Below are positions 1 through 29,641 of a DNA stretch of 64,000 nt, piece after piece. Location of the stretch: positions 76,767 to 140,766 of the IMG/VR virus record IMGVR_UViG_3300034065_000151; one strand, 5' to 3'. The DNA is from a virus (lineage: Duplodnaviria; Caudoviricetes). The notes beneath the pieces are model-generated. The model was not told where the DNA came from. It worked only from the letters and a program-made list of their open reading frames with translations, and ran no database searches. Numbering within the stretch: the first letter of the stretch is position 1; each line of letters opens with the position of its first letter. The translations under genes were made by a program, and so were the position numbers.

Positions 1-110
1 TCTTTTGGGTCATGACTATATTTGTTCCAAACAATATCCGGTACAACTTCATCAGCTTGTTTATGACCATGAATTAAATGGGGATTTTTATGAAACTGAT
101 ATAGATTCAT
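1..110 (-). CDS. MNLY-family Tyr-rich repeat protein, N-terminal part (runs off the left edge; not in the ORF track)
   Basis: Manual translation from ATG at 110: MNLYQFHKNPHLIHGHKQADEVVPDIVWNKYSHDPK, the same leader as the 25346-29641 paralogs. Its ATG overlaps the tape-measure stop (TAATG). Confidence 0.85.
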   Translation of the reverse strand, partial: MNLYQFHKNPHLIHGHKQADEVVPDIVWNKYSHDPK

Positions 111-2926
111 TACTTACTTCCCCCTTTGATATAGTTATTCACTGTACCAGGAGCTGGAGGTGTTCTATTAGAAACCTGTTCGGTTCCTGTATTCACAACC
201 ACCTGTTGCATTAATGATACTAACTGGATCATATTGTCATTAATATCTGAAAGGTATTCATGGGCTTTAATATCTGTGGTTGTAGTTTGCCCTGCTGCTG
301 TAACTGTTGCTTCATCAGGACCACTTAAAGCCCCTGCAGCTGCTTCACCACTGACATTACCTAATGCACTACCGCCCCAAGCACCAAGGCCCGCACCAAT
401 CAATCCACCAATAACTGTTCCTACTATCGGAACAACAGAACCAAGTGCTGCACCAGCAGCCATACCACCCCAAGCACCAAGACCACCACCTAAAGCACCA
501 CCAAGTGCTCCACCTTTTGCTTTGTTTGCTTGTCTATGTGTAATCTCGCCAGATGCTTCTTTATCAGCGGCGGTTGAATAACCTTCATAACCTTCATATA
601 AGGATCCTACTATAGCTAATGGAACTGCTGCTCGACCAAGAACCTTCCCAGCCATACTACCAGCACCTTTTAATAATCCCAATGCTCCGGCACCTTTACT
701 AGCAACTTGTGATGCTTCAGCAGCAATAACAGATTCACCTGCCCCAGCAACTGCCCCACCACCTTTACCAAATAATCCTTTAATACCATTAACAATTCCA
801 CCACCTTTACCACCGAGACTTAATCCGGCAGCACTGGCTTGCACCGCTAAACCAAGTAAAGCAACTGAAGCAGCACTTAAGCCACCTAAGAAACTATTAC
901 TCATAAATGATGATACTTTGTTAATTGCATCAGCAGCATCAGCAACCATTGCATTTGGTTGTGCTGCTTTTGCGGCTGCGGCTGCTTGCTCTGGTGTGTA
1001 TCCTAAATTAGCACGAGCAGCTTTTTCAGTAACTGAACCTTGATCTTCTTGTGCACCATATGCACCTATCCCATGAAGATTAGATGTAAGCATTTCCATC
1101 ATCTGAGTACCGGCAACATTCTGTCCTTGTGCACCAATACTCTTTTGTGCGGCTATACCAACTTCACCTAATGTCTTATTAAGCCATGCGGAATCCGCTT
1201 GACTAGCATTACGACCTAATTGCATAATTTGCATTGCTCGCATTGAGTCAGCTGGACTCCGTCCCTGCATCTGCATTTGCATAGCAACTTTAGCAGCTGA
1301 TTCATTACGGGATTTAACATCCATATGTTTAGCAGCTTCTTGGGTTTTGATCATTTCTTGAGCTTGCTCAATACTGATACCCTTCATGACTAAATCTTCA
1401 CGTTGGGCTTTCAATCCCTCAAAATACATTCCGGCTTGTTCTTTACCCAAGCCCATCATTGTGTTTGTTATATCTTGATTGGATAATAAATCACCATTCA
1501 ATTTAATAAATTCTGTTGCTGTAATTCCAAGGATACCTTGTAACTTCTGAAATCCGGTCATTGACTTACTTACATAATCATTTAACTTAGATTGGTTCTG
1601 TACATCAACACCTGCTGATGCTGCTTCTGCAATAGCAGGACCAATCATACTAGCTGACTGTGCAGCAGTAAATCCAAAATGTTTAAATGTAGAACCTAAT
1701 TGATTTGTTAATTGTGAAAATCCTGCGGCACCATACAATGCCATTGTCTGTTGGTTTTCTTTTAAGAACTTTGTGGTTTCTTCAAAAGACATACCCATTG
1801 CAATAGCTTGGCTTTTAACCTGCATAAAGGAAGCAGGAATATGCTGGACATTAAAGTCACCAATTTCTTTAGCAGCAACTATAGCAACTTCTTTAACCTT
1901 ACTAAGGGCGGCAAGGACGGCAGCAGTTTCACCAGCAGCCATTAATTTGTCTTGTAAAGAAGAACCAGTAATAGCACGACCAGCTTTATTAAATATAGAA
2001 TCAGTCGCACCATGGGCCACCTTATCTAAACCAAGCGCTGCATTATCTGCATCTGTAGAAAGTTTACCTAAAGCTGTTCCTAATTGAATATCACTAATTC
2101 TGGCAAGTTTCTTTAAACCATCAGCAGTTACTTCACCATTTTTAGTTATGCCTTCAAATGATTCACCAAGATCAAAACCAGCTGCTGATAATTGAAGTAA
2201 AGCATTACGTTGACCTTCAGGAGTTTTACCACTTTCGGAGATGATACCTTGAGCTTCACCTAATTTCATTCTTAATTTAGAGAAGTCTTCCGGAGATAGA
2301 TTTCTACGAAGTTCACCAGTATATTTGTCCATCAATCCAGTACTTGACAGGATACTCTTATTATTCTGTGTCAATCCTTTAACAGAATTACTAAGTTGAC
2401 TGATATAATCTTTATAGTGAGCTGAACCCTTTTCAAAACCTTTATGAGTTTCTAAAAGAGATGCACTAAGTAATGAGGAGTTACGTTGTGTTTGTGTTAA
2501 TGTATCTTGGAAATTACCGGTTGCTTTTGTTAATTCTTTAAGGGCAACTGACTGGCCATGGAAGCCTAATCTGGATAATTTATTGATTTCTTCACCAAGA
2601 GAATCATAATATTCAGTAGATTTTTTGATAGTTTTATTATATTCTACTAATGTGTCTTGACCATCTTGTGTTTCTTTGATCTGCTTATCAGTCATATTAC
2701 TAAGTTTTTTAGACTTTTCATTCAACTCTTTCATGATCTTAGCATGAGCAGATACCTGAACAAATAGCTCATCTTGAGCTTTTGCCGAATCATTTCTGTT
2801 TCTGGCACCACCACCCCAAGCACTACTAGCACTACTAGTATTACCACCCTTACCTGCCATAGCATCAGCAAAGGCTTTAGACATAGCCTTCGTTAGGTCA
2901 TTAAAATCAGTCTTATCAAGTGCCAT
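110..2926 (-). CDS. probable tail tape measure protein
   Basis: 938 aa, Ala/Gln/Met-rich helical body with a C-terminal glycine-zipper hydrophobic region (GGALGGALGGGLGAWGG); divergent from gp26/gp51-like genes and preceded by a late-promoter motif. Confidence 0.65.
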   Translation of the reverse strand: MALDKTDFNDLTKAMSKAFADAMAGKGGNTSSASSAWGGGARNRNDSAKAQDELFVQVSAHAKIMKELNEKSKKLSNMTDKQIKETQDGQDTLVEYNKTIKKSTEYYDSLGEEINKLSRLGFHGQSVALKELTKATGNFQDTLTQTQRNSSLLSASLLETHKGFEKGSAHYKDYISQLSNSVKGLTQNNKSILSSTGLMDKYTGELRRNLSPEDFSKLRMKLGEAQGIISESGKTPEGQRNALLQLSAAGFDLGESFEGITKNGEVTADGLKKLARISDIQLGTALGKLSTDADNAALGLDKVAHGATDSIFNKAGRAITGSSLQDKLMAAGETAAVLAALSKVKEVAIVAAKEIGDFNVQHIPASFMQVKSQAIAMGMSFEETTKFLKENQQTMALYGAAGFSQLTNQLGSTFKHFGFTAAQSASMIGPAIAEAASAGVDVQNQSKLNDYVSKSMTGFQKLQGILGITATEFIKLNGDLLSNQDITNTMMGLGKEQAGMYFEGLKAQREDLVMKGISIEQAQEMIKTQEAAKHMDVKSRNESAAKVAMQMQMQGRSPADSMRAMQIMQLGRNASQADSAWLNKTLGEVGIAAQKSIGAQGQNVAGTQMMEMLTSNLHGIGAYGAQEDQGSVTEKAARANLGYTPEQAAAAAKAAQPNAMVADAADAINKVSSFMSNSFLGGLSAASVALLGLAVQASAAGLSLGGKGGGIVNGIKGLFGKGGGAVAGAGESVIAAEASQVASKGAGALGLLKGAGSMAGKVLGRAAVPLAIVGSLYEGYEGYSTAADKEASGEITHRQANKAKGGALGGALGGGLGAWGGMAAGAALGSVVPIVGTVIGGLIGAGLGAWGGSALGNVSGEAAAGALSGPDEATVTAAGQTTTTDIKAHEYLSDINDNMIQLVSLMQQVVVNTGTEQVSNRTPPAPGTVNNYIKGGSK

Positions 2927-4092: not shown

Positions 4093-4123
4093 AAAAAAGG
4101 ACCTTCAATAGGTCCTTTTTTTT
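4093..4123. terminator. bidirectional rho-independent terminator
   Basis: AAAAAA-GGACCT-tcaat-AGGTCC-TTTTTTTT between convergent genes. Confidence 0.85.
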
Positions 4124-5402
4124 ATGCTTCCATATAACTCGGTGCTTGATCCACACTAACTCGCACACCTGTTATTAGTAATACATGATCCACCAGTTGC
4201 TGGGGTTCCATATCAGATTTGATTCCATCTAGCCCATCATGTAACATCAATCCGGTTTGACCGATCGCATTCCAAATGGCATACCGACTTACTCGTTCCC
4301 AATCAAAATACAATTTGAAAATCTGTTTCTGATTCTTGGCTGTTGGTGGTAACTTCAATAAATGAATACACAAATCCCTTTTGGCAGCTTTAAACTGTCT
4401 GGTAATAGAAGCAAGTCTCTTACCAATATTAAGAAGTTCAGATGGAAGTAATTGTGAATTAGCTTGTAATATAATATTGACAGCTTCAGAATATCCCGCA
4501 CCACTCACCATCATTCTTGGTGATATAGTAGAACCATTAGCTAATGCCATTACTAACTTCTTAACAACATTGATATTATCTGATGTTGGTTCAAGCTTGA
4601 GTAAATGACAGAGTTCCCAACGGAAGGCAACTTTTTCACGATCAGCTCTTAAAATATCTGGATATAACATTTCTAAAGATTTTTGATTATCCTTATACTT
4701 TTCTTCCAGATGAGTAATCAGGAATTGACAATAAGAATTCTCAATATCAATGACATCACCAAATAAAGCTGTACGTAACCAACCTGGCCAACATTCAATA
4801 GATTTAATTGGCCAAACTGATTTATCTCTTGCTTGGAGTATTCCACTCTTTTCAAAATAGAAATCAATAGGTCCATCATGTTTGAATAACCAATTGATAG
4901 CTGGAAGTAGATCCTCTCGATTAGTTCTTTTTAATTCAGCCCTGACATGAGTCTGAGCCTTTTTATCTACTTGAACTTGGCTGATGGTATAGTCACCGAG
5001 TGGTTTGATACCAGGAGAAAATCGAACTTCATGGATGATAGCTTCAATGGCTTCAATCATATCCATATTAAGTTTCTTAGGACTTATTAAGGTGGGACTT
5101 TTCAAACCATTATTGAAGTTGAAACCCAACCGAGTGATAGTAAAGAAGTGTTCAAGAATGACCTTAGCATCCTTTACTTGACGGGTTAGATTGGTGAGAA
5201 GGACTTCTTCGTTGATGAACCCAGGAGCTGCACTATTTTGTTGGATACAATGATACCATGCAATGGCAATAGACAAGATGAGGTCTTGTCTTTGTTTACG
5301 TTTATTCCACCAAGTACCACTAATTCTAAAAAAATTACCCACGTAAAGTGGGCAATCTCTCCGAAATATTTGATCTGTTTTTACTGCATGAAAAAGAAGC
5401 AT
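4122..5402 (-). CDS. minimal family-A polymerase-fold protein
   Basis: Motif A-like DVIDIENSY, motif B-like KKLVMALANG and motif C-like LMLHDG in the expected order; no exonuclease domain visible. Confidence 0.5.
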   Translation of the reverse strand: MLLFHAVKTDQIFRRDCPLYVGNFFRISGTWWNKRKQRQDLILSIAIAWYHCIQQNSAAPGFINEEVLLTNLTRQVKDAKVILEHFFTITRLGFNFNNGLKSPTLISPKKLNMDMIEAIEAIIHEVRFSPGIKPLGDYTISQVQVDKKAQTHVRAELKRTNREDLLPAINWLFKHDGPIDFYFEKSGILQARDKSVWPIKSIECWPGWLRTALFGDVIDIENSYCQFLITHLEEKYKDNQKSLEMLYPDILRADREKVAFRWELCHLLKLEPTSDNINVVKKLVMALANGSTISPRMMVSGAGYSEAVNIILQANSQLLPSELLNIGKRLASITRQFKAAKRDLCIHLLKLPPTAKNQKQIFKLYFDWERVSRYAIWNAIGQTGLMLHDGLDGIKSDMEPQQLVDHVLLITGVRVSVDQAPSYMEA

Positions 5403-5404
5403 AG

Positions 5405-5890
5405 TTAGTCGTTAGGTTGAAAGGCTGCTAAGTAGTCAGTTAATGTAATGACTAATTCATCATAAGAATGAACTACAGGAATATCATATCTATGACAGAC
5501 AATATCCACATTACCTTTACAATAAAATCCATGAGGACAACATACAATGACATTATCCCAATCCCGATTTGCTGATAGTCCCAACTCCATAAGAGTTATA
5601 GGAGATTTGGTATTAGGATCAAAATAGAATACGGTTATTTGAGCAGATTCCAATCCATTTAATTCCCAAGTAACTTGTTCATTAAATTGTGGATTTTCAA
5701 ATTCTTGTACCCATGAGGCATCCCAATCAGTACGTCTTGGATTCAAAAAGAGAACAGAAAAGTCTCTAAAATCATTTACAAGACGTTCTTGCCATGGTTC
5801 AGCTAGCCCCATCTCAATTGATCCTGTCAAAAATACTTTTGGCAAGTGGGGATATACATTGATATTGTTTGGGGCTTTGACTTCAATCAT
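5405..5890 (-). CDS. nucleoside 2-deoxyribosyltransferase-like protein
   Basis: VFLTGSI..WQ, NPRRxDWD, QVxWEL and SPITLMELGL signature motifs. Confidence 0.85.
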   Translation of the reverse strand: MIEVKAPNNINVYPHLPKVFLTGSIEMGLAEPWQERLVNDFRDFSVLFLNPRRTDWDASWVQEFENPQFNEQVTWELNGLESAQITVFYFDPNTKSPITLMELGLSANRDWDNVIVCCPHGFYCKGNVDIVCHRYDIPVVHSYDELVITLTDYLAAFQPND

Positions 5891-6153
5891 TATGCATGAC
5901 CAAGAACAGCTTCAATACCATCACGCTTCATACGACGGTATACAGCTTTAGGACATTTTGGATCAAGAGTGACCGAATTGTGAATTTCAATTTGTGGCTG
6001 CATTTCTTTATGACCTTTGGCAGTTTTACCTTCTTTCATAACAGTCACTTTATGCTGGACATAACCGTAACGGGTATAAGCACCTTCAAGCACACCAGTT
6101 TTAACTAATTGGCGAACGATAATACGTAATGCTTTGGCTTTCTTTTGATTCAT
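5890..6153 (-). CDS. hypothetical basic protein
   Basis: 87-aa ORF translationally coupled to both neighbours. Confidence 0.7.
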   Translation of the reverse strand: MNQKKAKALRIIVRQLVKTGVLEGAYTRYGYVQHKVTVMKEGKTAKGHKEMQPQIEIHNSVTLDPKCPKAVYRRMKRDGIEAVLGHA

Positions 6154-6326
6154 TTTATTTCCTTGGTTGAATTGAGAACTTCTACAAAATTGATTGCTGC
6201 TTGTTTTACATCTTCTTCATATGCTCGTTGGGATTTTACTGCTGGAACCAAATCACTAACAATTTCCTGAATTTTTTCTTCAGGCAAATTACCAACATCC
6301 ACATAAAAAATTCTTCGATTACTCAT
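6150..6326 (-). CDS. 58-aa mini-protein carrying the T4-type portal clip motif (not in the ORF track)
   Basis: MSNRRIFYVDVGNLPEEKIQEIVSDLVPAVKSQRAYEEDVKQAAINFVEVLNSTKEIK; AAGGA Shine-Dalgarno; ATGA overlap with the next gene. Confidence 0.75.
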   Translation of the reverse strand: MSNRRIFYVDVGNLPEEKIQEIVSDLVPAVKSQRAYEEDVKQAAINFVEVLNSTKEIK

Positions 6327-6335
6327 CTTATTTCC

Positions 6336-6632
6336 TTAATAATTTAAAATACTATTGGTATTAAAGTACATATTATACAACTCAACTAATACATCACCAT
6401 GACAAGCATCAGGTTTACACCAACAGCCTAATGTTAAACCTTTTAATTCTGGTAGAGAATTAAATAATTCAGGAGTATCTAAAATATATTGTCTATACTT
6501 TTCGATAACTTCTTTACGAGTTCCATGAACTCCTATTATAAATGGATTTCCCCATTTACTTGGTCTCGTAATTATAAAATCGTAGTTGTCCCTTTTGCAG
6601 TGGACAACATTAATCTTCTTGTTTTTCTTCAT
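6336..6632 (-). CDS. DUF4326-family protein
   Basis: RPSKWGNPF and LGCWCKPxxCHGDVL motifs. Confidence 0.85.
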   Translation of the reverse strand: MKKNKKINVVHCKRDNYDFIITRPSKWGNPFIIGVHGTRKEVIEKYRQYILDTPELFNSLPELKGLTLGCWCKPDACHGDVLVELYNMYFNTNSILNY

Positions 6633-7035
6633 GTTTTAAATGGGCACGGTCAATAGCTTCAGCCGCCGCTTGAGGTACATCATTTGGAATCTCTACATAA
6701 GCACCAAGTACATATGCACGACCACCTTCAGCCCACTCGGGATTTACAATTTGTTTAGGTCCACCCAACCACGAGAATGCATGTGCATTCATGTTGTTAT
6801 TTGTGGTGACAAACCAATTAATATCACCGAGGTCATCACGACCTCGTTTGATAGTTTTTAGAATTTGATATGCTTCTTTTGAAACACCAAGATGTTTTCC
6901 CGTATTCATAATAACTTGACCAATACGAGTAGGACCATCAAGTGAAGTTGCTACTTCATTTTCAATTGATTTTGTTGCTATTAGGTCTATAATTAAAGAA
7001 CCTTTATAAGCAGTAATAGTTGCATGAATTGTCAT
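6610..7035 (-). CDS. hypothetical protein
   Basis: 141-aa ORF in a packed minus-strand operon. Confidence 0.7.
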   Translation of the reverse strand: MTIHATITAYKGSLIIDLIATKSIENEVATSLDGPTRIGQVIMNTGKHLGVSKEAYQILKTIKRGRDDLGDINWFVTTNNNMNAHAFSWLGGPKQIVNPEWAEGGRAYVLGAYVEIPNDVPQAAAEAIDRAHLKHEEKQED

Positions 7036-7944: not shown

Positions 7945-8595
7945 CTATTCATCATTTGAATAGTCATGAGGAGTGCACCAAAAGGTTGGGCACTTTAATA
8001 GGTCATCGAAATAATGTACCTGGAGAGTTTGTTCACAACAACCATCTGATTCAAGATCATAAGTTGTAAGTTCAAATCGTGGAAGAGGAGTCTCTTGCTT
8101 TAGATCAGTATAAGCAGTATGACTTTTCTTAACAATAACAAATACGGGAGTACGATTCCATTTGAAAATCAACATTGGAAATTTACTTGTTTTTAAAGCA
8201 TCAACTTCAGATTCTTTAAACCATTTAAAAATGTTTGCAGTATTTGCAGCAAGAGAAGTAAAACTATCTGAGTCAGCATAACTCTTACATTCAATAGAAT
8301 GTAAGAAAGTTAAACCGGCTTTTTTTTCATTGATTGGTACAACGTCAGCGGTGAATATCTTCATAGCTTCAGCACCAAACATATCACCAAACTTTTCAAA
8401 GTTCTTACCACCAACTCGTGCACCAGAACCTGGACTACGAATGAAATTCAATGGTGCTAATGCAGCTGATAGCTTTTTAGCAACTTGTCCTTCAAATGAG
8501 TTACCTTTGGCTTTACCGCCACCGGGTCTCATTTTACGTTTTTTAGGGGAAACTGAATCCATGTCAGCATCGCTAATGGTAGATTTTTTAGTCAT
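7945..8595 (-). CDS. Holliday junction resolvase-like PD-(D/E)XK nuclease
   Basis: KGNSFE, RSPGSGA, ADV and IECK motifs. Confidence 0.75.
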   Translation of the reverse strand: MTKKSTISDADMDSVSPKKRKMRPGGGKAKGNSFEGQVAKKLSAALAPLNFIRSPGSGARVGGKNFEKFGDMFGAEAMKIFTADVVPINEKKAGLTFLHSIECKSYADSDSFTSLAANTANIFKWFKESEVDALKTSKFPMLIFKWNRTPVFVIVKKSHTAYTDLKQETPLPRFELTTYDLESDGCCEQTLQVHYFDDLLKCPTFWCTPHDYSNDE

Positions 8596-8630: not shown

Positions 8631-8638
8631 TATTTATA
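8631..8638 (-). promoter_or_regulatory. late promoter TATAAATA
   Basis: Exact consensus upstream of the resolvase gene. Confidence 0.6.
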
Positions 8639-8926
8639 CTATTCCGGGTCCCATACTTTAAACCATGATGTTAAGGGCTTAGTATGATATAAAACAGTTC
8701 GTGAAAGGATGACCAATCTGAGTTGACATTTGCCCTTTTTGACCTCAAATGTCTTATGACAAACATATTTCTGTTTAACTTTAAATGGGAAATTGATGCA
8801 AATATACCAACCATTAAGGAATTCTGATTTATACTTATCTAACTGGATATTGTCACCATACACAATAAATGCATCTTTACTGAAAGGTTTTCCTTCTAGT
8901 CTATCTTGTTCTAATATTAATTTCAT
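8639..8926 (-). CDS. hypothetical protein
   Basis: Probable start at MKLILEQ (8926), giving an ATGA overlap with the upstream gene. Confidence 0.55.
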   Translation of the reverse strand: MKLILEQDRLEGKPFSKDAFIVYGDNIQLDKYKSEFLNGWYICINFPFKVKQKYVCHKTFEVKKGKCQLRLVILSRTVLYHTKPLTSWFKVWDPE

Positions 8927-9183
8927 GGGTTGGATAAGGTATAGATACACAAGTTTCTGGCCTGTGTAAGTCGGGTTAAACATTCAAATAATATGCCAGG
9001 AGTAACTAAATTGCCACTAGTCATATGACAAAGCTGTAAAATAGATGATTCAATTTCATTAATTGTTTTCTGATCAGGAATCACCGCTTTAAAATGAGTC
9101 TCAATAAAATATATTGGATCATGTATTAAACTAGCTTGTTGAGATAGGGTTAACTTTGGTGGTGGTATATTATTGTATGTCAT
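8923..9183 (-). CDS. small protein with a terminase large subunit N-terminal motif
   Basis: HDPIYFIETHFK resembles the DPxYFIxxY segment of T4-type gp17. Confidence 0.5.
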   Translation of the reverse strand: MTYNNIPPPKLTLSQQASLIHDPIYFIETHFKAVIPDQKTINEIESSILQLCHMTSGNLVTPGILFECLTRLTQARNLCIYTLSNP

Positions 9184-9581
9184 TCAGCATCATCTTCCGG
9201 GATAACATTAACACCAAGCAAATTGATATCAGTAATTTCTTTTGTACCATTATCTCGCATGTGTACATTACCTGTAGAATAAGAGCGATAAGAAACTGGA
9301 ACATGACCATTTATTAAGGTTTCTAATATATGTCCCTGATGTGTATCAGCAACTTTAATTGTACCAATCATGTTACCTCCTTCTAGTTTCAAATCAGAAA
9401 CAGTAAAGGCTACATCTTTTTGATCTATAGTACAACCAATTGAACAACCAATAATTCCAGGCAATGGCTGGTTCTTAGCCTTCCATTCATCAATCGCTTT
9501 TTGTAAAGCTTCTGATGAGTAACAATTGCCATTCCGTGTTGGTACATCAGCTTTTAATATATCAACCTTAAATTCTTCCAT
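9180..9581 (-). CDS. degenerate T4 gp21-like prohead protease (probably inactive)
   Basis: ADVPTRNGNCY, TIDxxDVAF and GTIKVADTHQGHILETLI align to gp21; catalytic GELxHP reads GIIGCS and GVSSRG reads VSYRSYS. Confidence 0.7.
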   Translation of the reverse strand: MEEFKVDILKADVPTRNGNCYSSEALQKAIDEWKAKNQPLPGIIGCSIGCTIDQKDVAFTVSDLKLEGGNMIGTIKVADTHQGHILETLINGHVPVSYRSYSTGNVHMRDNGTKEITDINLLGVNVIPEDDAE

Positions 9582-9582
9582 C

Positions 9583-11553
9583 TCAGTCTCCTAAAATTCG
9601 GGAAAAGCCCGATTCCTTTCTAACTACGACCGTTTTATCAAATCGGCCGACAGCCTCAGGACGATGTGAAATAATCCACATACTCAAATTATCTTCCCGA
9701 GTCTTACCCTTCAACAACTTAAATATGTTATTAACACCTAATGAATCCAAACCACCATCAATCTCATCAACAAACAAACAGTTCACATGAGAATGTAAAT
9801 GATGCAATACATCCCTAAATGATAATGACAATGAAAGATTAACACGTTTCTTTTCACCACTGGAAAGGTTACCGAAATCCAATTCACGACCATACTGTAC
9901 CACAGTACAGCTCATATCATCATCAAACTTAATAACATGAGGTAAACCCAATTCTCTGGTGTAATAAAATAAACGCTTATTCAAGAATGGAATTGTACGG
10001 CTAATAATTGTACGACGGATAAATGAATTCTTATCAGTTAACAGTTTCAATAGGAATTGCTGATGTTCTATCAGTTTCTTCAATCTATCAAGTTCTGTAT
10101 AATCAACTATATTTATAGGACTTTTCAACAGTTCTTCATGGGCTTCAATATGAGGATTAACAAGAACTGGTTGGTTTTTAAGCTGTTCAAGCACCTCAAT
10201 ATATGGATTAACTGGAATAGGCTGATTTTTAAGTTGTTCAAATACCTCAGTATATGGATTACTTGAATCCTTTAACTCTTTTATTTTGTTTTCAGCAATA
10301 ACAGCATTAGATTCAGCTTTAAGAACTTCTTCAAGACTGCCAAATTTCATTACTTCTAATGCTGATTTCTTATCATTCAATAATGTTGCTAGTTCTGCAT
10401 TTCTAATATTAATTTCATGAATCCATGTATTAACACTTGTTTCTTTATCATGAATAGATTCTTTTAATCCACTTATTTTCTTAGCAGCACCTTCAAATTT
10501 CTGTAAACAGTATGGACACTTTTCATCTACTAAATGCGATAATTCTTTAGTCAGTTTTTTAATATCTGTTTCTAAAATCAAATTATCTTTTTTTAATCCA
10601 TTAATCTCATTAGTGAGTCTGGTTTCTTCTGTTTTAATTCCATTAACTAATACATGAAGTTCCTTTTCTACTTCACTATCAAATGTGGAAATTAAATCAT
10701 AATCTTTTTGCAATTTAACAAGTTGGGATTGTTTTTCAGTATCCCATTTGGTGATACGATCTTCTGCTTCCTTAAGCTGTTTAACCGTTTGTTTTTCTGT
10801 ATCAGTATCCCATTTTTCAATACGATCTTTTGCTTCTTGAAGCTGATTAGCATATTGATTTACTGTATCATTATCCCATTTAGTAACACGCTCCTCGGCA
10901 TTTTTAACTTGCTTCTGGAATAAAGCTGATTGAGATTCCTGCTCTTTGATAACAGCTTCTTGAATAGCCGCATTACTTTCAGTTGCTTTGATAATAGCTT
11001 TCAACTTGATTGCCTTCTCAGACAACAAAGTGATATTAAACAATTCTTCAATCTGTGCACGTTGTTGAGCAACTGGCATCAACAAGAATGGGGTTGAGTC
11101 ACCGGAGAATACAATGATCTTAGTAAACAGTTCATAACTGATACCAATAACTTCAAGGATTAACTTATTGGTTTCTGCAGCACTTGCACAAGTAATATCT
11201 TCACCATTCTTAGTGAATGTGATTTCAGTTGATTCACCACGACTGCGATATATCTCATATGTGTCAATACCCTTATCAAAGAATAAGCGTACTTCCAACA
11301 TGGTTTTCTTCAGATTATTGGTTGCATTAATCAATCGCTGAAGCGATATCTGGCTTAATGGTTTATCATAAACCGCATAGACCAATGTATTAAGAATGGT
11401 GGTTTTACCGGAACCATTAGCACCATCATTATCAAGATTCTCGCCTTGAAGATGGGTAGTACCAGGATCACTTAAATCGATGACTGTGGTTTGATTACCA
11501 AAGGATAATACATTGCGGATATGTAGTTCTTTAAAACGAATTGGAATACTCAT
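9583..11553 (-). CDS. gp46: recombination exonuclease ATPase subunit (Rad50/SbcC-like)
   Basis: Walker A GANGSGKT, CPYC zinc hook, signature LSSGEK, Walker B FVDE, H-loop ISH. Confidence 0.95.
   Translation of the reverse strand: MSIPIRFKELHIRNVLSFGNQTTVIDLSDPGTTHLQGENLDNDGANGSGKTTILNTLVYAVYDKPLSQISLQRLINATNNLKKTMLEVRLFFDKGIDTYEIYRSRGESTEITFTKNGEDITCASAAETNKLILEVIGISYELFTKIIVFSGDSTPFLLMPVAQQRAQIEELFNITLLSEKAIKLKAIIKATESNAAIQEAVIKEQESQSALFQKQVKNAEERVTKWDNDTVNQYANQLQEAKDRIEKWDTDTEKQTVKQLKEAEDRITKWDTEKQSQLVKLQKDYDLISTFDSEVEKELHVLVNGIKTEETRLTNEINGLKKDNLILETDIKKLTKELSHLVDEKCPYCLQKFEGAAKKISGLKESIHDKETSVNTWIHEINIRNAELATLLNDKKSALEVMKFGSLEEVLKAESNAVIAENKIKELKDSSNPYTEVFEQLKNQPIPVNPYIEVLEQLKNQPVLVNPHIEAHEELLKSPINIVDYTELDRLKKLIEHQQFLLKLLTDKNSFIRRTIISRTIPFLNKRLFYYTRELGLPHVIKFDDDMSCTVVQYGRELDFGNLSSGEKKRVNLSLSLSFRDVLHHLHSHVNCLFVDEIDGGLDSLGVNNIFKLLKGKTREDNLSMWIISHRPEAVGRFDKTVVVRKESGFSRILGD
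10125..10260 (-). repeat. three 51-bp (17-aa) tandem repeats in gp46
   Basis: NPYTEVFEQLKNQPIPV / NPYIEVLEQLKNQPVLV / NPHIEAHEELLK. Confidence 0.85.
10735..10900 (-). repeat. three 66-bp (22-aa) tandem repeats in gp46
   Basis: ATCCCA recurs at 10741, 10807 and 10873; peptide RVTKWD / RIEKWD / RITKWD. Confidence 0.85.
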
Positions 11554-12044
11554 AGGAAATAGATTAACTTTGCATTAGTACGGCTGAAATTTATACAGGG
11601 AATGAGTGTTTCACGCATCTCATCAAAGGCTTGTGGACTGAATTGTTTTGAAATAATAAGGTGGTCAACTGTTTTACCACGACCACCATGGGGACGGCTT
11701 ATTAGAAAAATACGATTACCATTTTCAAATTCAATTACATCCTTAGTAAATCTTTTAATTGGGATTCGATATAATTCGGGAATGCTATAAAAAATATCCC
11801 TTAACTGATATAAGATATAATCTTTTAAATTGGCATTAGAAGAAGGAGTGGCAATGATAACATTTTTATTACTTTGATATAAACAAACCCATAAAGTAAA
11901 CAACAAAACATCATCAACATCAGCACCATCTATCAGCTTATCTTCAAAGGTATTACTAAGATCCCTTCCACCATACATAGTTGAAAAGACTTCAAACTTT
12001 GTATGACTTTGTAGTTCAATAATTTGTTGTAAAGTATAGGTCAT
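11550..12044 (-). CDS. degenerate terminase large subunit ATPase fragment (no Walker A; Walker B lost)
   Basis: LWVCLYQSNKNVIIA, IPELYR, KDVIEFENGNRI, RGKTVDHLIISK and LIPCI match the gp17 ATPase core. Confidence 0.7.
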   Translation of the reverse strand: MTYTLQQIIELQSHTKFEVFSTMYGGRDLSNTFEDKLIDGADVDDVLLFTLWVCLYQSNKNVIIATPSSNANLKDYILYQLRDIFYSIPELYRIPIKRFTKDVIEFENGNRIFLISRPHGGRGKTVDHLIISKQFSPQAFDEMRETLIPCINFSRTNAKLIYFL

Positions 12045-24300: not shown

Positions 24301-25346
24301 ACTTTGTCTATGATATCAATGGTGAAGTTATTACCAATTCCCTTGAATTACTTCCTACTGATACCAGTACATTCACCCTTGCCGGTAACGGTTCTCCTGA
24401 TAATATCCTTCAGTTCGAAAACTTTGCCCAGAACTCCTACCAGTTCACTGTCATCAATGTTACCGATCCTACTAATCCTATCATCGATAATGTCCTTAAC
24501 TGCTCAGACTATACCTATATCTCTGGCTATGATATGACACAATATGATATCAATGGCTATGACTCAGGCGTCATCTCAGTCACTGGATTCTCACAACCAT
24601 TCAACTTCATCCCCGGCTCTTTCATGTCATCCAATACAGTCAATGGATTCCAAATCGCCAGACAACTCTACGTACCAGCTCCTGCTGTTGTCAGTCCTAC
24701 TACTAACCAATACAGCTGTAATATCACTACTGGTCTTGATTTCATGTGGCAACATTACACTCCGGACTCTAACCTTATTGACCCATCACCAAGTAATATC
24801 CATGATGCCTTCTTGTTAACATCTGGCTATTATACATCGGTAATGGATTATGTGAATGGATTTACTACTGTAGCTCCACAGCCACCTACTCCTCTCGATC
24901 TATTAACTTCTTATGGTTACCTTCTCGAGAATAAGATGTTGTCTGATACACTTGTCCTTCATTCAGGTAAGATTAAACTTCTATTCGGTTCCCTTGCTGA
25001 TCAAACCCTTCGTGCTAAATTCAGTGTTATCATGGCACCTACTGCTACCTTCTCATCAGAACGTATCAAACAAGAAGTTATTAATACCATCAACACCTAT
25101 TTCACAATACAATCATGGGACTTCGGCCAATCCTTCTATGCTACCGAACTATTGTCTCTTATTCACCAAGCCTTACCTACACAGATTTCATCAGTAGTTA
25201 TTGTGCCCACCTATAGCGTTAACTCATTCGGCTCTCTATTCACTATCAATGCAGGCTTCGATGAAGTCCTTCAATCCTGCACCCAAGTAACAGATGTGGA
25301 GATTGTTGCTGCTTTAACACCATCAGTTATTAGACAGGTTGTTTAA
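21390..25346 (+). CDS. gp6: baseplate wedge subunit (gp6-like, enlarged)
   Basis: FTSFDYD, ENFITTAQRKQSILRLAKLISY, FGDG, ETIEHVR..AP..YYAQDRMV and WDFG motifs. Confidence 0.85.
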   Translation: MTIINKYAAESWDKVYTAFTQINFTSFDYDTVKESLIQYLQIYYAESYNDMIESSELIAILEMFAYAAELITYRVDIASHENFITTAQRKQSILRLAKLISYSASRNIPARGLVKLNTVRTDQTVYDSLGNNLANVTITWNDPSNSNWKEQFFLVMNLSLTTTFGQPSKSFQVADVLMQQYTFNNNLAAFNNGVFAFNASTTTQSVQMEAVPIDIDANGPFERSPDLNAQFNIVYASDGRGDGSDYTGFLLFVKQGSLLQTNYVIPEPTANRRIELDAININNTDVWLYGVDNTGTITENWLPVNTLNDQTLAFNNNTTTRKQYSIDTLENDRIAINFGDGNFSDAPVGAYQIWTRVSANQDITVQKQQIVNQKMSFTYLDNTNVSHVFNMTFSLTSSLQNNSASETIEHVRQSAPSTYYAQDRMVNGQDYNTYMLKDSTILKLNTINRTFAGQPKYIEWNDASGAYQNIKLFGDDLTMNLSTSVDMVLTTTSSQSIIDSYIEPLLQTNALLNTLTHQIASAADSYGIISYPRRVFIEDNQKVYFDINGNPVNPYGRQLPSPAQIAANAASPAPLPLSQIGTPLHTGDGSLLEKTVIQGALDNHWYGSPTSTVTINGTISGVIPDPVADPSSDSNIYAPNMPRTIDGVNLYPPGDTGSGFQNINLQQYFGLKYNRFLQAFGTGDIALYNVNDFVLLTPPQLPPTQNWGYGDGAPNSITNSNGTLDSSHNPVPCPCNGLNAYNYKMEVLTIEMTSDSTTFAITSNIRGTLPSYSLTKAASVTNPQPRWSQQSPTAVPCDFIISNGTTQYKAGDAFVINITFQNGQWGSVVRSFGTNNAHKANLSGWWELIPETVINGSTAEGGLNLFTQGASDGPNSVQAMTFDQGSAGSSWIFLVASTLSTSGTVASWSIYNRDMKIIASSPTTKFWFNTASQILDPQTLKPLYDKIRILRSNLDELGMPLKQADIYDCVNFVYDINGEVITNSLELLPTDTSTFTLAGNGSPDNILQFENFAQNSYQFTVINVTDPTNPIIDNVLNCSDYTYISGYDMTQYDINGYDSGVISVTGFSQPFNFIPGSFMSSNTVNGFQIARQLYVPAPAVVSPTTNQYSCNITTGLDFMWQHYTPDSNLIDPSPSNIHDAFLLTSGYYTSVMDYVNGFTTVAPQPPTPLDLLTSYGYLLENKMLSDTLVLHSGKIKLLFGSLADQTLRAKFSVIMAPTATFSSERIKQEVINTINTYFTIQSWDFGQSFYATELLSLIHQALPTQISSVVIVPTYSVNSFGSLFTINAGFDEVLQSCTQVTDVEIVAALTPSVIRQVV

Positions 25347-25693
25347 TGAACCTATATCAATTCCATACAATACCTGAGTCACTCCATAAACATGCAGTTG
25401 CTCAGGAAACTGTACCTGAACTCGTCTGGAAGAAATATAAAAATGATCCCGAAGAACTAAAGAAATATGAAAACGTTCTCGCTAAATCCCCACAATATGC
25501 CTGCCAATATGCTATTGATATTCTCGGTAAAGCTTTCCCTAAAGGTGAACCTGCTATCATGAAAGATGCCTGGTATGCAGCCTGGTATGCCATGGATATT
25601 AAAGATAAACGATGGAAAGCCGCCGAACCAACCATCTTCGACGACGAAGAAGCTGCTAAAGACTATATCCGCTACTTTGGAATCAATCGATGA
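25346..25693 (+). CDS. MNLY-family repeat protein (2 repeats)
   Basis: Shared leader and 26-aa repeats; TAATG overlap with gp6. Confidence 0.85.
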   Translation: MNLYQFHTIPESLHKHAVAQETVPELVWKKYKNDPEELKKYENVLAKSPQYACQYAIDILGKAFPKGEPAIMKDAWYAAWYAMDIKDKRWKAAEPTIFDDEEAAKDYIRYFGINR

Positions 25694-26217
25694 ACCTCTA
25701 CCAATTCCACGATCACCCTGAATCTATCCATAGCCACGATAAAGCAGATACTCATGTAGTAGATGTCTTCTGGAACAAATATAAAAATAACCCTAAAGAA
25801 CTAAAAACTAGAAAACATGCTATTACTAAATCTTCTAAATACTCTTTCTATTATGCCAGCGATATACTAAAAGGTAGATTCCCATTAGGTGAACCCGCCA
25901 TCGCCACTGATCCCTATCAAGCTAAAGACTATGCCACCACAATACTTAAAGGTAGATTCAAACTAGCCGAACCCACTATCGCTAAAAATAGCTATGCTTC
26001 TTATATCTATGCACTAAAGGTTCTCAAAGGTCCATTCAAATTAGGTGAACCTGCCATTCTTAAAGACCCAGAAGATGCATTACTATATGCTAAAAACGTT
26101 CTAAAGAAACCATGGCCTAAAGCTGAACCCATCATTGCATCCAATATCTGGACAACCATAGAATATAATACATCCTTTAATCAACACCTAGCATATACAC
26201 GTACCTATAAAATATAA
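25690..26217 (+). CDS. MNLY-family repeat protein (4 repeats)
   Basis: KGRFPLGEPAIATDPYQAKDYATTIL-type units. Confidence 0.85.
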   Translation: MNLYQFHDHPESIHSHDKADTHVVDVFWNKYKNNPKELKTRKHAITKSSKYSFYYASDILKGRFPLGEPAIATDPYQAKDYATTILKGRFKLAEPTIAKNSYASYIYALKVLKGPFKLGEPAILKDPEDALLYAKNVLKKPWPKAEPIIASNIWTTIEYNTSFNQHLAYTRTYKI

Positions 26218-26324
26218 ACTACTCATGGATAAAACTATTTTAAGTAATTGAGTGTTAACCAATAGTAATTTGTAGTAGGTTTTAGAAAAGTTAGTTTGTC
26301 CCTTTGAATCGAACGGAATCGAGA
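26218..26324. other. candidate replication origin (G/C skew inversion point)
   Basis: AT-rich intergenic gap where the + strand switches from C-rich to G-rich; contains AGTAATT twice and GAATC three times. Confidence 0.5.
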
Positions 26325-26780
26325 ATGAATCTTTACCAGCTCCACTCAGCACCAACCAGCATATATGGACATGACAAAGCGCATGAGACAGTACCTGAAC
26401 TTATCTGGAAGAAGTATGAAGGTAACCCTGACCAAGATGAGCAGCTCAAGAGGTATGAGGACATCCTTGCAAAGGATCCTGGGTATGCTTACAAGTATGC
26501 ATTCCTGATTCTTAAGAAACCCTTTCCTAAGGGTGAGAAGGCGATTGCAACCAGTCCTGAATATGCTTTTAACTATGCTCTACATGTCCTTAAAGGACCA
26601 TTTAAAGCAGGAGAACCAGCTATATCCAAGGATGCTTATTATGCAGTATGGTATGCTGTGGACGTCTTAAAGAAGCGGTTTCCTATGGCAGAAGACTTGA
26701 TATATGATGATTATGACCTAGCCATTGAGTACAATAGTATGTTACATAAGCATGATATAAAGATCCCACATCGACCATAA
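26325..26780 (+). CDS. MNLY-family repeat protein (3 repeats)
   Basis: Start placed at ATG 26325 by homology of the MNLY leader. Confidence 0.85.
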   Translation: MNLYQLHSAPTSIYGHDKAHETVPELIWKKYEGNPDQDEQLKRYEDILAKDPGYAYKYAFLILKKPFPKGEKAIATSPEYAFNYALHVLKGPFKAGEPAISKDAYYAVWYAVDVLKKRFPMAEDLIYDDYDLAIEYNSMLHKHDIKIPHRP

Positions 26781-26803
26781 GTAAACCTTTTATTATATCA
26801 CAT
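26781..26803 (-). promoter_or_regulatory. antisense sigma70-like motif, copy 1
   Basis: GTAAACCTTTTATTATATCACAT, which reads TGATATAAT on the minus strand. Confidence 0.5.
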
Positions 26804-26865
26804 GATAAGTAATAAGTGTAGTAAGTGTAGTAAATATAGGAACTGTTGGATGATAATATCCTAAG

Positions 26866-26888
26866 TGAAACCTTCTATTATAACATAA
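26866..26888 (-). promoter_or_regulatory. antisense sigma70-like motif, copy 2
   Basis: TGAAACCTTCTATTATAACATAA, which reads TGTTATAAT on the minus strand. Confidence 0.5.
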
Positions 26889-26904
26889 AAATTGGAACTG
26901 ATGT

Positions 26905-27273
26905 ATGAAAGTTGCAGAATTATTTGAGGCCCGGATTAAGTATAAGCGTCCAGATTTCCAGGAAGAATGGAATGAGGCGCAACGTTATCCTGAACTTAAG
27001 AAGCTTGGTAAACAAGGATGGATTAAGTTAGTTAATGATGGACAGATTGTTAATAGTAAGACCTTATTAAATATAGGTAATATTGATTTAGATTTATCTG
27101 GTTTGGATAAGGCGAAGTTAGCCAGAGCTGAAGCGAGTATTAATAAGGGTGAGGTAGAGTTACCTATAGTGGTTAAGATTAATGGTAAGTATGATTTGCT
27201 TGGTGGTAATACCCGCTTTGCATATATGAAATCAAAGGGTATCAATCCTATAGTATGGTTAATTAAGATATGA
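26905..27273 (+). CDS. ParB/sulfiredoxin N-terminal domain protein
   Basis: ELPIVVKINGKYDLLGGNTR motif; N-terminus MKVAELFEA. Confidence 0.7.
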   Translation: MKVAELFEARIKYKRPDFQEEWNEAQRYPELKKLGKQGWIKLVNDGQIVNSKTLLNIGNIDLDLSGLDKAKLARAEASINKGEVELPIVVKINGKYDLLGGNTRFAYMKSKGINPIVWLIKI

Positions 27274-27761
27274 ATTTATATAAGCTACATGACAAACCTG
27301 AGAGTATCCATGGACATGATAAGATGGATACCCATGTCATCGATGCATTCTGGGATAAGTACAAAGATAATCCTGCTGAATTAAAGAAGCGTGAGAAAGC
27401 AATTGCTAAACATACAGAGTATGCACATCATTATGCCAATATATTAAAGGGACCATTCCCAGCTGGAGAAGATGCTATTGCTAAAGATGCATTTAGTTCT
27501 TTATATTATGCTGGGAGTATATTGAAGGGACGGTTTCCTAAGGGAGAGAAGGAAATAGCAAAGTATCCAGGATATGCTTATAGGTATGCTGAGTATGTAT
27601 TGAAAGGGCCTTTCAAATTAGGTGAGGATGCGATATCAAAGAATCCTGAGTATGCTTTTAAGTATGCTTATTATATATTAAAGAAGAAATGGTCTAAAGG
27701 AGAGGATGCGATTAATAAGGATCCATACTTTAAGGAAAGATATGCAAGGGAATTTAAATGA
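27270..27761 (+). CDS. MNLY-family repeat protein (4 repeats)
   Basis: Shared leader and repeats; ATGA overlaps. Confidence 0.85.
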   Translation: MNLYKLHDKPESIHGHDKMDTHVIDAFWDKYKDNPAELKKREKAIAKHTEYAHHYANILKGPFPAGEDAIAKDAFSSLYYAGSILKGRFPKGEKEIAKYPGYAYRYAEYVLKGPFKLGEDAISKNPEYAFKYAYYILKKKWSKGEDAINKDPYFKERYAREFK

Positions 27762-28333
27762 ATCTATATGATATGCATCATGATCCTAAGAGTATCCATA
27801 AACATGATGAAGCCGATATGACAATACCTAAAGTGTTTTGGGATAGGTATAATCATATGCCATCTGAATTAGAGAAACGTGAAGCAGCCCTCGCAAAGAG
27901 TCCTGAGTATGCTTACTATTATGCCAGGGAAGTATTAGATAAACGTTTCCCTAAAGGAGAAGCTGCCATTGCGACAAGTCCTAAGTATGCATATTATGCG
28001 TATTATGTGATAGATGGAAGGTTTCCTGTGGGAGAACCTGCTATAGCAAAGGATATAAAATACAGTGTGAATTATGCTATCCATGTAATACATGAGGAGT
28101 TTCCATTAGGGGAAGATATTATAGCGACTGATGTAGAGTATTCATATGAGTATGCATATGGATTGGGTAAAGTATTTAAGAAGGGTGAAGCTAAGATAGC
28201 AACAAATGCCGAGTATAGTTGTCTTTATGCTCTGTGGGTATTAGGAAAGAGATTCCCATTAGGAGAACCTGTGATAGCCAAAGATCTTCATTATAAACAT
28301 GAATACAATAAACAGTTTGGAACTAACCTATGA
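27758..28333 (+). CDS. MNLY-family repeat protein (5 repeats)
   Basis: Shared leader and repeats. Confidence 0.85.
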   Translation: MNLYDMHHDPKSIHKHDEADMTIPKVFWDRYNHMPSELEKREAALAKSPEYAYYYAREVLDKRFPKGEAAIATSPKYAYYAYYVIDGRFPVGEPAIAKDIKYSVNYAIHVIHEEFPLGEDIIATDVEYSYEYAYGLGKVFKKGEAKIATNAEYSCLYALWVLGKRFPLGEPVIAKDLHYKHEYNKQFGTNL

Positions 28334-28953
28334 ACTTTTATAAACTACATGATGAACCGGAAAGCATTCATAAGTACCAGGAAGCTTTAGATAAAGTAGT
28401 AGATGTATTCTGGCATAAATATAAAAATGATCCTGTTAAATTAAAAGAACGGGAACCAGAGATTGCTAAATCGGCAAAGTATAGTTATGCATATGCCTTT
28501 GGGGTATTACATAAAAGGTTTCCTGCAGGGGAAGCAGCTATATCTAAAGTACCACAGACAGCATATAATTATGCCAAGAATATAATACAGGGACCATGGC
28601 CAGAAGGAGAAGATGCCATTGGTAAAGAATCATACTTTGCTTACTATTATGTAGAAGAATACCTTAGGAAGAAGTTCCCTAAGGGAGAAGCTGCGATCGC
28701 AAAGGATCCATATTATGCTGCTGAGTATGCAAGGATAACAGGACAACCTTTTAAGGCAGGTGAGAAGGCAATTGCTACTAACAATTATGCATCGTATATC
28801 TATGCGAGGGATGTATTGAAGAAGCCATGGAAGCCTGGAGAGGCAGCTATCTTGAATGATAAGGATGGTACCGAATACAGTGAGAACTATATGAAGTTTT
28901 GTAATGAATGGTATGCTAACCAGAAGAAAAACAAAGGATCTAAAGATGAATGA
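28330..28953 (+). CDS. MNLY-family repeat protein (5 repeats)
   Basis: Shared leader (MNFY variant) and repeats. Confidence 0.85.
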   Translation: MNFYKLHDEPESIHKYQEALDKVVDVFWHKYKNDPVKLKEREPEIAKSAKYSYAYAFGVLHKRFPAGEAAISKVPQTAYNYAKNIIQGPWPEGEDAIGKESYFAYYYVEEYLRKKFPKGEAAIAKDPYYAAEYARITGQPFKAGEKAIATNNYASYIYARDVLKKPWKPGEAAILNDKDGTEYSENYMKFCNEWYANQKKNKGSKDE

Positions 28954-29203
28954 AAGTAAACCTATTATTATAACACATTGTGCAGATGATGTATATGATA
29001 AATTTTGGCGTAAGCAGAAACCAAACACCAGGGTATGTATTGATTCCTATGAGAATGAGATAGCAAAGATACCAGGACATGCTTGTGCTTATGCTAAGTA
29101 TGTATTGGGTGGAAGGTTTCATAAGGGAGAGAATGCTATCTATAGTGATTTGCATACTTCTGCTATCTATATACATTTCTTGGAGTCCTTGAATGATCAG
29201 TAA
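28946..29203 (+). CDS. degenerate MNLY-family member (1 repeat, leader replaced)
   Basis: VYDKFW..YENEIAKIPGHACAYAKYVLGGRFHKGENAI; the 5' end coincides with antisense motif copy 3. Confidence 0.6.
   Translation: MNESKPIIITHCADDVYDKFWRKQKPNTRVCIDSYENEIAKIPGHACAYAKYVLGGRFHKGENAIYSDLHTSAIYIHFLESLNDQ
28956..28978 (-). promoter_or_regulatory. antisense sigma70-like motif, copy 3
   Basis: GTAAACCTATTATTATAACACAT, 21/23 identical to copy 1; TATACA at the -35 position with a 17-nt spacer. Confidence 0.5.
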
Positions 29204-29291
29204 AGTCACTGCCGATAAGATTAGATATAGCTTCCTTATATTCTGGACCATATACCTAATTGCTAATGCTATCAAATGGATGGTATCATGA
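29193..29291 (+). CDS. 32-aa hydrophobic peptide (not in the ORF track)
   Basis: MISKVTADKIRYSFLIFWTIYLIANAIKWMVS; GGAG Shine-Dalgarno; ATGA overlap with the next gene. Confidence 0.45.
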   Translation: MISKVTADKIRYSFLIFWTIYLIANAIKWMVS

Positions 29292-29641
29292 ACCTTTATA
29301 CATTACATGATCATCCTGAAAGTATCCATGGACATGATAAAAAGGATTCACGAGTACCTGAACTCATTTGGGCCAAATATAAAAAAGATCCTGCTAGTAT
29401 GAAAAAATATGAATCAGTACTCGCAAAGGATTCTCATTATGCTTACCTCTATGCCGCCAATATCCTCAGACATAAATGGTTAAAGGGAGAACCTGCGATA
29501 GCTAAAGATGCAACATGTTCCTGGGAATATGTTATGCATGTATTAAAGAAGCCATTTCCTAAAGGAGAGAAGGCTATCCTTGGTAGTTCCTTTGCAGATG
29601 CATATAGATTAAACCTAGAAATATATAAAGATAAAGAATAA
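29288..29641 (+). CDS. MNLY-family repeat protein (2 repeats)
   Basis: Start placed at 29288 by leader homology. Confidence 0.85.
   Translation: MNLYTLHDHPESIHGHDKKDSRVPELIWAKYKKDPASMKKYESVLAKDSHYAYLYAANILRHKWLKGEPAIAKDATCSWEYVMHVLKKPFPKGEKAILGSSFADAYRLNLEIYKDKE

Follow-up and report, generated by a model that had tools for sequence, protein, structure and literature searches.

No proteins of tailed phages are more conserved than the portal and the terminase, which is why several bacterial immune sensors are directed at them. In the T4 portal protein gp20, the clip (residues 279-358) is built of three strands and helix alpha-6 and docks the motor and the neck (PMC4493910). At the tip of the clip, residues N291, M292, R295, and K296 face or contact the terminase gp17, and the clip sheet, in which one strand from one subunit joins two from the next, is the sole main-chain contact between subunits (PMC4493910). 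As cited in PMC4493910, a synthetic 24-residue peptide that spans gp20 288-311 binds gp17 and is inhibitory to DNA packaging. Portal clips are also documented immune targets: SpbK docks on the clip of YonE, the portal of SP-beta, and the contacts that Avs4 makes include the clip as well as other parts (PMC12847820). The papers on SpbK and Avs4 describe no phage-encoded clip decoy (PMC12847820), and the known counter-defence of SP-beta is reported to be a different protein.

Our literature search returned no description of a natural stand-alone clip gene, clip mimic, or decoy. In plant and animal biology, microProteins are small paralogues that keep only the interaction surface of a larger protein and act by titration. 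To our knowledge, no one has yet extended this concept to the virion proteins of phages. The phage mini-protein described here resembles microProteins as a short, single-element copy of a multidomain protein, with the partner-binding part kept and the working parts gone; it differs from them in that its mode of action is one that we infer. The synthetic gp20 peptide comes closest to it as a precedent, together with the broader notion of small paralogues that act as dominant negatives.

Portal homology of a 58-codon mini-gene

The window, that is, the whole 64,000-nt stretch of DNA analysed here, belongs to an IMG/VR record of an uncultured phage, 140,766 b long with an estimated completeness of 40%. 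Relatives found via the terminase are 310 to 360 kb long, and the phage is thus a jumbo T4-like phage, which fits the first-pass annotation. An intact 58-codon ORF of the ORF list lies on the minus strand at 6150..6326 of the window. Its product begins with MSN and continues with RRIFYVDVGNLP. The gene and its translation signals are as follows.

6150..6326, minus strand: mini-gene of 58 codons (ORF list, Pfam PF07230, T4 gp20 alignment)
6333..6337, minus strand: Shine-Dalgarno sequence AAGGA, 6 nt ahead of the mini-gene ATG (read from the sequence)
6150..6153, minus strand: ATGA overlap between the mini-gene stop and the start of the 5890..6153 gene

The AAGGA of the mini-gene overlaps the stop codon of the DUF4326 gene upstream, and the AAGGA of the downstream 87-aa gene is supplied by the last codons of the mini-gene. 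The first-pass annotation had described a 58-aa peptide with a portal clip motif, a Shine-Dalgarno sequence, and ATGA coupling at this place. All three hold for the intact ORF, to which we add the minus strand. It had also called the peptide unannotated, which is true of its own track only; gene callers list the ORF in a public protein collection.

The mini-protein scored 26.1 bits against the Pfam profile Portal_T4 (PF07230; E = 4.5e-6; curated cut-off, 22.9 bits), with residues 3-38 placed on profile positions 205-240 of 433, and it matched PHROG 213 'portal protein' (E = 2e-7). A tblastn search with the mini-protein matched 1,719 of 50,697 phage records, and all of the best 40 rows (40/40) fell in gp20-type portal genes or in unannotated DNA at the same motif. 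Alignment to solved structures placed residues 3-38 on T4 gp20 281-316, a match that covers the first strand of the clip, the terminase-touching tip, and helix alpha-6. The mini-protein can be divided accordingly.

Residues 4-10: portal clip strand beta-1
Residues 11-15: clip tip
Residues 16-34: helix alpha-6
Residues 35-38: start of beta-2
Residues 39-58: tail, not portal-related

When the mini-protein was aligned with 13 clip segments from portals, the likeness extended to about residue 38, where a conserved Tyr and an acidic residue mark the start of beta-2, and the mini-protein departed from the portals thereafter. By these comparisons, the portal likeness of the mini-protein exceeds chance. 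The likeness to T4-type gp20 claimed earlier is confirmed by the profile, tblastn, and structure-based results, and so is the assignment of the conserved stretch to the region where the motor docks, given the position of the T4 clip with its tip facing gp17 (PMC4493910). Two small phage protein families, PHROG 12349 (97 positions; E = 1.2e-4) and PHROG 23805 (72 positions; E = 8e-3), also matched the mini-protein; a real clip segment of a portal matches both of them too, at this same motif, and fragments of disrupted portal genes may be among their members. The motif of phrog_12349 is located in the C-terminal part of the profile (positions 57-89), so its build differs from that of the mini-protein.

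The comparison with complete portals of the T4 type (PF07230; PDB 3JA7 and 6UZC) showed homology between mini-protein residues 3-38 and gp20 281-316 together with clear differences. A full portal has a wing, stem, clip, and crown (about 500 residues, forming a dodecameric channel) and is about 520 to 550 aa long, whereas the mini-protein has 58 aa and its portal alignment ends at residue 38. The clip domain itself, with three beta-strands and alpha-6, is incomplete: the match runs from beta-1 through the tip and alpha-6 only into the first residues of beta-2, and an unrelated 20-residue tail stands in place of the beta-2/beta-3 hairpin. Lacking the wing, stem, crown, and beta-hairpin, the mini-protein is unable to build a portal; it is a portal-derived piece, not a portal. 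The mini-gene is also separate from a complete portal gene. The phage encodes its own full-length portal of 545 aa about 7 kb away, followed by the prohead protease, and the mini-gene is thus an extra copy of a piece. Because the mini-gene and the phage's own portal gene share only 41% DNA identity over 108 shared nt, the copy is old, and a recent duplication of the phage's own portal is ruled out.

Residues 10-33 of the mini-protein align with gp20 288-311, and by segment the mini-protein is the natural counterpart of the synthetic peptide. It differs from this laboratory reagent in being genome-encoded, in its preceding strand and added tail, and in an acidic residue at the position of R295. 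N13, L14, and K18 correspond to T4 N291, M292, and K296, and E17 stands at the R295 position. The mini-protein of the one close relative has D at the R295 position and also D13 and I14. In the phage's own portal, the positions matching R295-K296 hold His-Arg. With an acidic residue in the one and His-Arg in the other, the charge pattern reported to hold gp17 is not copied in the mini-protein.

These positions bear on a reading in which the mini-protein regulates the phage's own motor. It would bind the phage's own large terminase at the portal-docking site and could either keep the terminase from docking before proheads are ready or detach it when packaging ends. The three matching residues, and the coverage of the same segment as in the T4 peptide that is cited as binding gp17 and inhibiting packaging, are in its favour; the Glu, or Asp in the relative, at the R295 position speaks against it. 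We consider such a regulator unlikely. If it were true, the gene would encode a natural packaging inhibitor or timer.

The strand part of the mini-protein raises a further explanation. At all 12 positions of residues 4-15, the mini-protein has the residue that is the consensus among 12 environmental T4-like portals, compared with 9 of 12 in the phage's own portal. AlphaFold2 modelled the mini-protein alone with moderate confidence (pLDDT 69) as a loose N-terminus, with residues 1-15 unfolded, and one long helix. The loose N-terminus fits a strand that needs a partner, and it proves nothing; the ESM Atlas gave nothing usable for the mini-protein. A free beta-1 could pair with the beta-hairpin of a portal subunit in place of the neighbour's strand, and it would thereby either prevent premature assembly of the phage's own portal monomers or block ring closure in a rival T4-like phage. 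The near-consensus strand (12/12 against marine T4-like portals), its unfolded state in the model, and the sharing of the clip sheet between T4 subunits are what such a cap or poison would lead one to expect. However, the phage's own portal has almost this same strand and would be affected by a cap just as much, and it is the helix of the mini-protein, not the strand, that changes fast. We therefore rate this explanation as quite improbable.

Operon, late promoter motif, and neighbouring genes

The mini-gene lies in a tightly packed minus-strand gene row that starts at 8595 and consists of the genes for PDDEXK, a 202-aa protein, a 71-aa protein, a 141-aa protein, DUF4326, the mini-protein, the 87-aa protein, a nucleoside deoxyribosyltransferase-like protein, and a 426-aa protein. 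Three features of this row are relevant to the mini-gene.

8631..8638, minus strand: late-promoter motif TATAAATA, 35 nt before the PDDEXK nuclease gene heading the operon
5890..6153, minus strand: 87-aa gene, translationally coupled to the mini-gene, with a variable central patch
4093..4121, no strand assigned: hairpin of 12 bp with A and T runs on its flanks, just past the operon's last gene (4122..5402)

The hairpin is likely a two-way terminator. The motif TATAAATA has 18 copies in the 140-kb record, and 14 of the 18 are intergenic and lie 11 to 79 nt upstream of a same-strand ORF, that of the portal included. The copy at 8631 is kept in the relative though the neighbouring bases differ. 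Copies also occur at window positions 2957, 41418, 48711, and 60394, among others, and are likely T4-type late promoters. With its operon behind a late-type promoter motif, the mini-protein is probably made alongside the portal and the terminase, and late coexpression of the mini-gene with both appears plausible from the placement of the motif. Production together with TerL and the portal would also suit a regulator of the phage's own motor.

The 87-aa gene matched no Pfam or PHROG family, and its only Atlas relatives were in unnamed viral clusters. It is 72% identical to the gene of the relative, with a dN/dS of 0.41. Its central patch (5967-6086, minus strand) has 57 to 67% DNA identity between conserved ends, mirroring the pattern of the mini-gene. 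The 141-aa ORF (6610-7035, minus strand) has no family match and is absent in the relative, which has a 50-aa ORF there; because the DNA flanking 6610-7035 is 98 to 100% identical, this is a gene-content swap point beside the mini-gene. Scans seeded with the 426-aa gene and with the PDDEXK gene found no relatives of either.

The mini-gene could be a domesticated relic, that is, an old portal fragment with a role unrelated to the clip, for example with the 87-aa protein or with the nearby junction-resolving nuclease, so that the clip likeness would reflect ancestry only. Such a role would account for the tight coupling to the 87-aa gene and for the non-portal-like tail (residues 39-58). It would also suit the position downstream of a Holliday-junction-type nuclease near gp46, which is found here and in the record of a 95-aa mini-ORF (G015). 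On the other hand, what has been retained is exactly those clip elements that are exposed and bind partners, and the same elements are kept at three genomic sites, one of which, that of a 64-aa copy (G007), is not near a nuclease. A relic of this kind is, in our judgment, not probable.

Divergence from the single close relative

A word search of 5.8 billion clusters and an HMMER scan of 1.84 billion representatives yielded a single true relative of the mini-protein, a 58-aa protein with 78% identity, encoded in the same gene order on a metagenome contig of 101 kb. A 2,332-aa repetitive vWA protein matched in the HMMER scan was rejected as a summed chance match. The differences between the two mini-genes are concentrated in one patch.

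6231..6302, minus strand: variable patch, codons 9-32 (tip and alpha-6-like helix), with 20 nt and 13 aa differences from the relative

All 13 amino acid differences (13/13) fall within the 24 residues of codons 9-32, and the rest of the gene has one synonymous change (0 nonsynonymous:1 synonymous). The patch is about 70% identical in DNA sequence, whereas about 150 b upstream and 90 b downstream are 97 to 100% identical; the dS of the patch flanks is 0.05, compared with 0.4 to 0.8 in neighbouring genes. This mosaic pattern could stem from short-patch recombination in a generally mosaic region. Hypermutation of the DGR type was rejected: a short-word blastn search of the 140-kb record (40% complete) found no template repeat, and the only match was one of 21 nt and 90% in the portal gene.

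The dN/dS of the patch was 1.6 (16.8 nonsynonymous:3.2 synonymous), compared with 0.05 to 0.4 in neighbouring genes; with two alleles and 20 changes, the patch value is statistically inseparable from neutrality. For the whole mini-gene, the dN/dS was about 1. The replacements were nevertheless conservative, with a mean BLOSUM62 score of +0.77 against -0.58 ± 0.48 for simulated mutation (10,877 sets; P = 0.003), and the hydrophobic positions of the helix keep I, V, or L. Both observations indicate that the fold is constrained while the surface is changing. In addition, the mini-gene of the relative has retained the start codon and ribosome-binding site, is of equal length, and shows the same ATGA coupling.

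These data bear on the simplest alternative, a decaying, nonfunctional leftover whose frame is open by chance. A whole-gene dN/dS near 1, taken from two alleles only, is what decay would give, and by a rough estimate 20 substitutions would leave the frame open in about 4 of 10 cases by chance. Decay would not explain the conservative replacements, the retained start, ribosome-binding site, length, and coupling, or the independent mini-ORFs of the same build in other phages, and the product still scores above the Pfam cut-off despite the low DNA identity to the parent gene. A leftover is very unlikely, and we take the mini-gene to be a real, maintained gene.

The mini-protein evolves about 10 times faster than the portal, with amino acid differences of 22% and 2%, respectively, between the two phages. 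The two portals are 98% identical overall and identical over 140 residues around the clip, and the N parts of TerL are identical at 290 of 294 positions (99%). Since the phage's own portal clip and terminase are unchanged while the tip and helix of the mini-protein differ, the surface of the mini-protein is not tracking the phage's own portal or motor. Change at 13 of 24 tip and helix residues next to a constant TerL and clip likewise argues against a regulator of the phage's own terminase.

Distribution, candidate targets, and neighbouring mini-paralogues

We searched 20 related virus records that were reached via the terminase. Two of the 20 contained further mini-ORFs of the same build at different genomic sites.

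L179:1405-1599, minus strand: 64-aa clip-like mini-ORF directly after nrdB and before a glutaredoxin gene, beginning four residues ahead of the motif
L190:1372-1659, minus strand: 95-aa clip-like mini-ORF overlapping the end of a RuvC-like gene beside gp46

For both, Portal_T4 was the sole Pfam match, at the same profile positions as for the mini-protein; these matches are weak and below the cut-off (E = 7.7e-4 and 0.01, respectively). In five relatives of 310 to 360 kb (87 to 100% complete), we found the full portal and no mini-ORF. The patchy distribution and the differing sites are the behaviour of an accessory gene. Among related phages with the same motor, most lack the gene, which is a further point against a regulator of that motor.

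A profile search of short proteins with the clip-segment alignment gave 258 matches. Among the 118 listed and read, nearly all were pieces of genuine portal genes, recognised by portal sequence flanking the motif or as frameshifted tails or contig ends. As broken portal pieces, these short matches are no evidence for stand-alone genes, and naive counts overstate the class. A scan of IMG/VR with the mini-protein alignment returned 80 loci, all of them portal genes of at least 200 aa. A 48-aa protein, P0237 (NCBI, Logan, and ENA; 3 contigs), carries the clip motif and helix behind an N-terminus that is not portal-like, and it could represent either a further stand-alone copy or one end of a portal gene that has been split.

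The mini-protein consists of the clip beta-1 strand, the exposed tip, and alpha-6, joined to what appears to be a short, unrelated helical tail. Because the kept parts are the exposed, partner-binding elements and the missing parts are the channel builders, a soluble competitor is the most economical reading. The gene's product is probably a soluble mimic of the clip tip. The first-pass annotation had proposed a clip mimic that could bind terminase, poison portal rings, or block Avs4: what stands of this is the homology to the terminase-docking clip segment and the signs of a maintained gene, namely, an intact copy in the relative, conservative replacements, and analogues in two phages. A separately encoded docking tip would be a simple means to compete for tip binders, be they a host sensor, a rival motor, or the phage's own motor.

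We tentatively favour, with somewhat less than even confidence, a soluble mimic of the clip that would compete for a factor binding there, the factor being more likely foreign than the phage's own motor. The mini-protein, probably produced in the late phase alongside the portal and the terminase, would tie up a factor that recognises the exposed clip. The target could be a clip-docking immune sensor of the host or the packaging machinery of a coinfecting T4-like phage. A foreign target is favoured by the change in the tip and helix (13/24) while the phage's own portal clip and TerL do not change, and by the acidic residue at the R295 position compared with the His-Arg of the phage's own portal; both of these lean toward a foreign target and do not decide. 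The absence of the gene from most relatives with the same motor points the same way. As would be expected of a decoy, a patchy accessory distribution (2 of 20 records) was found together with a fast-changing presumed contact surface (13 of 24 residues). As SpbK and Avs4 show, the exposed clip helix is a surface that host immunity recognises, and in the mini-protein it is this helix, along with the tip, that changes fast.

However, Avs4 reads a much larger surface than 36 residues, which counts against the mimic reading, and a clip piece that binds a sensor might trigger the sensor rather than block it. A link to the reported action of the portal on RelA and SpoT was ruled out, as that paper finds the clip dispensable. 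A decoy, if confirmed, would show how phages can protect triggers that they are unable to change. Whether it acts as a decoy or on the terminase, the mini-protein would offer a compact, defined tool for probing the interface between portal and motor.

Competition of this kind may also account for dead mini-copies of the protease and the terminase nearby. Both lie within 6 kb of the mini-gene and flank a gp46-like gene.

9180..9581, minus strand: mini-protease of 133 aa, a prohead protease paralogue with both catalytic positions replaced
11550..12044, minus strand: mini-terminase of 164 aa, a terminase ATPase paralogue whose match begins after Walker A and whose Walker B acidic pair is replaced

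In an all-against-all BLASTP of the record's ORFs, the mini-protease matched the phage's own protease (E = 2e-9); it also matched PHROG 207 (E = 5e-11) and scored 25.4 bits against Pfam S77, below the cut-off of 27. It has Cys and Arg at the positions of the protease's GELNHP His and GVSSRG first Ser. We take this His and Ser to be catalytic, since they are Ala in the T4 protease chain 5JBL. The dN/dS of the mini-protease pair was 0.2, indicating purifying selection. The mini-terminase matched the N part of the phage's own TerL at residues 84-191 (BLASTP E = 1e-11) and PHROG 5989 (E = 6.5e-8). The relative has ORFs of matching size at the places corresponding to the two mini-copies. An 86-aa ORF at 8923..9183 matched no Pfam or PHROG family.

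The mini-copies of the portal clip, the terminase ATPase, and the prohead protease might form one set of decoys that blunts host pattern-recognition sensors, both Avs-type and clip-docking, with the tip and helix of the mini-protein tracking the sensors. We regard such a set as a rather doubtful possibility. If true, it would be a new counter-defence principle, the mimicry of a phage's own conserved triggers.

Two other features of the genome were observed. The large terminase (C1:38891-41869, outside the window) is encoded by two genes, and an atypically split intein connects them. An ORF of 294 aa contains the N-extein (residues 1-258) and a 36-residue N-intein that starts with Cys, and a 222-aa ORF comes next; a 381-aa ORF contains the C part of the intein (about 118 residues, matching the engineered CatC intein, PDB 6DSL), followed by the nuclease domain. 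The split is common to many relatives, and others have an unsplit terminase of about 510 aa. In addition, at least 10 paralogous genes of 84 to 207 aa are present at window positions 25346-29641 (plus strand) and -144..110 (minus strand) and at C1:50699-51570, mostly in one tandem row, with 40 to 57% identity over a shared N-terminal region of about 100 residues.
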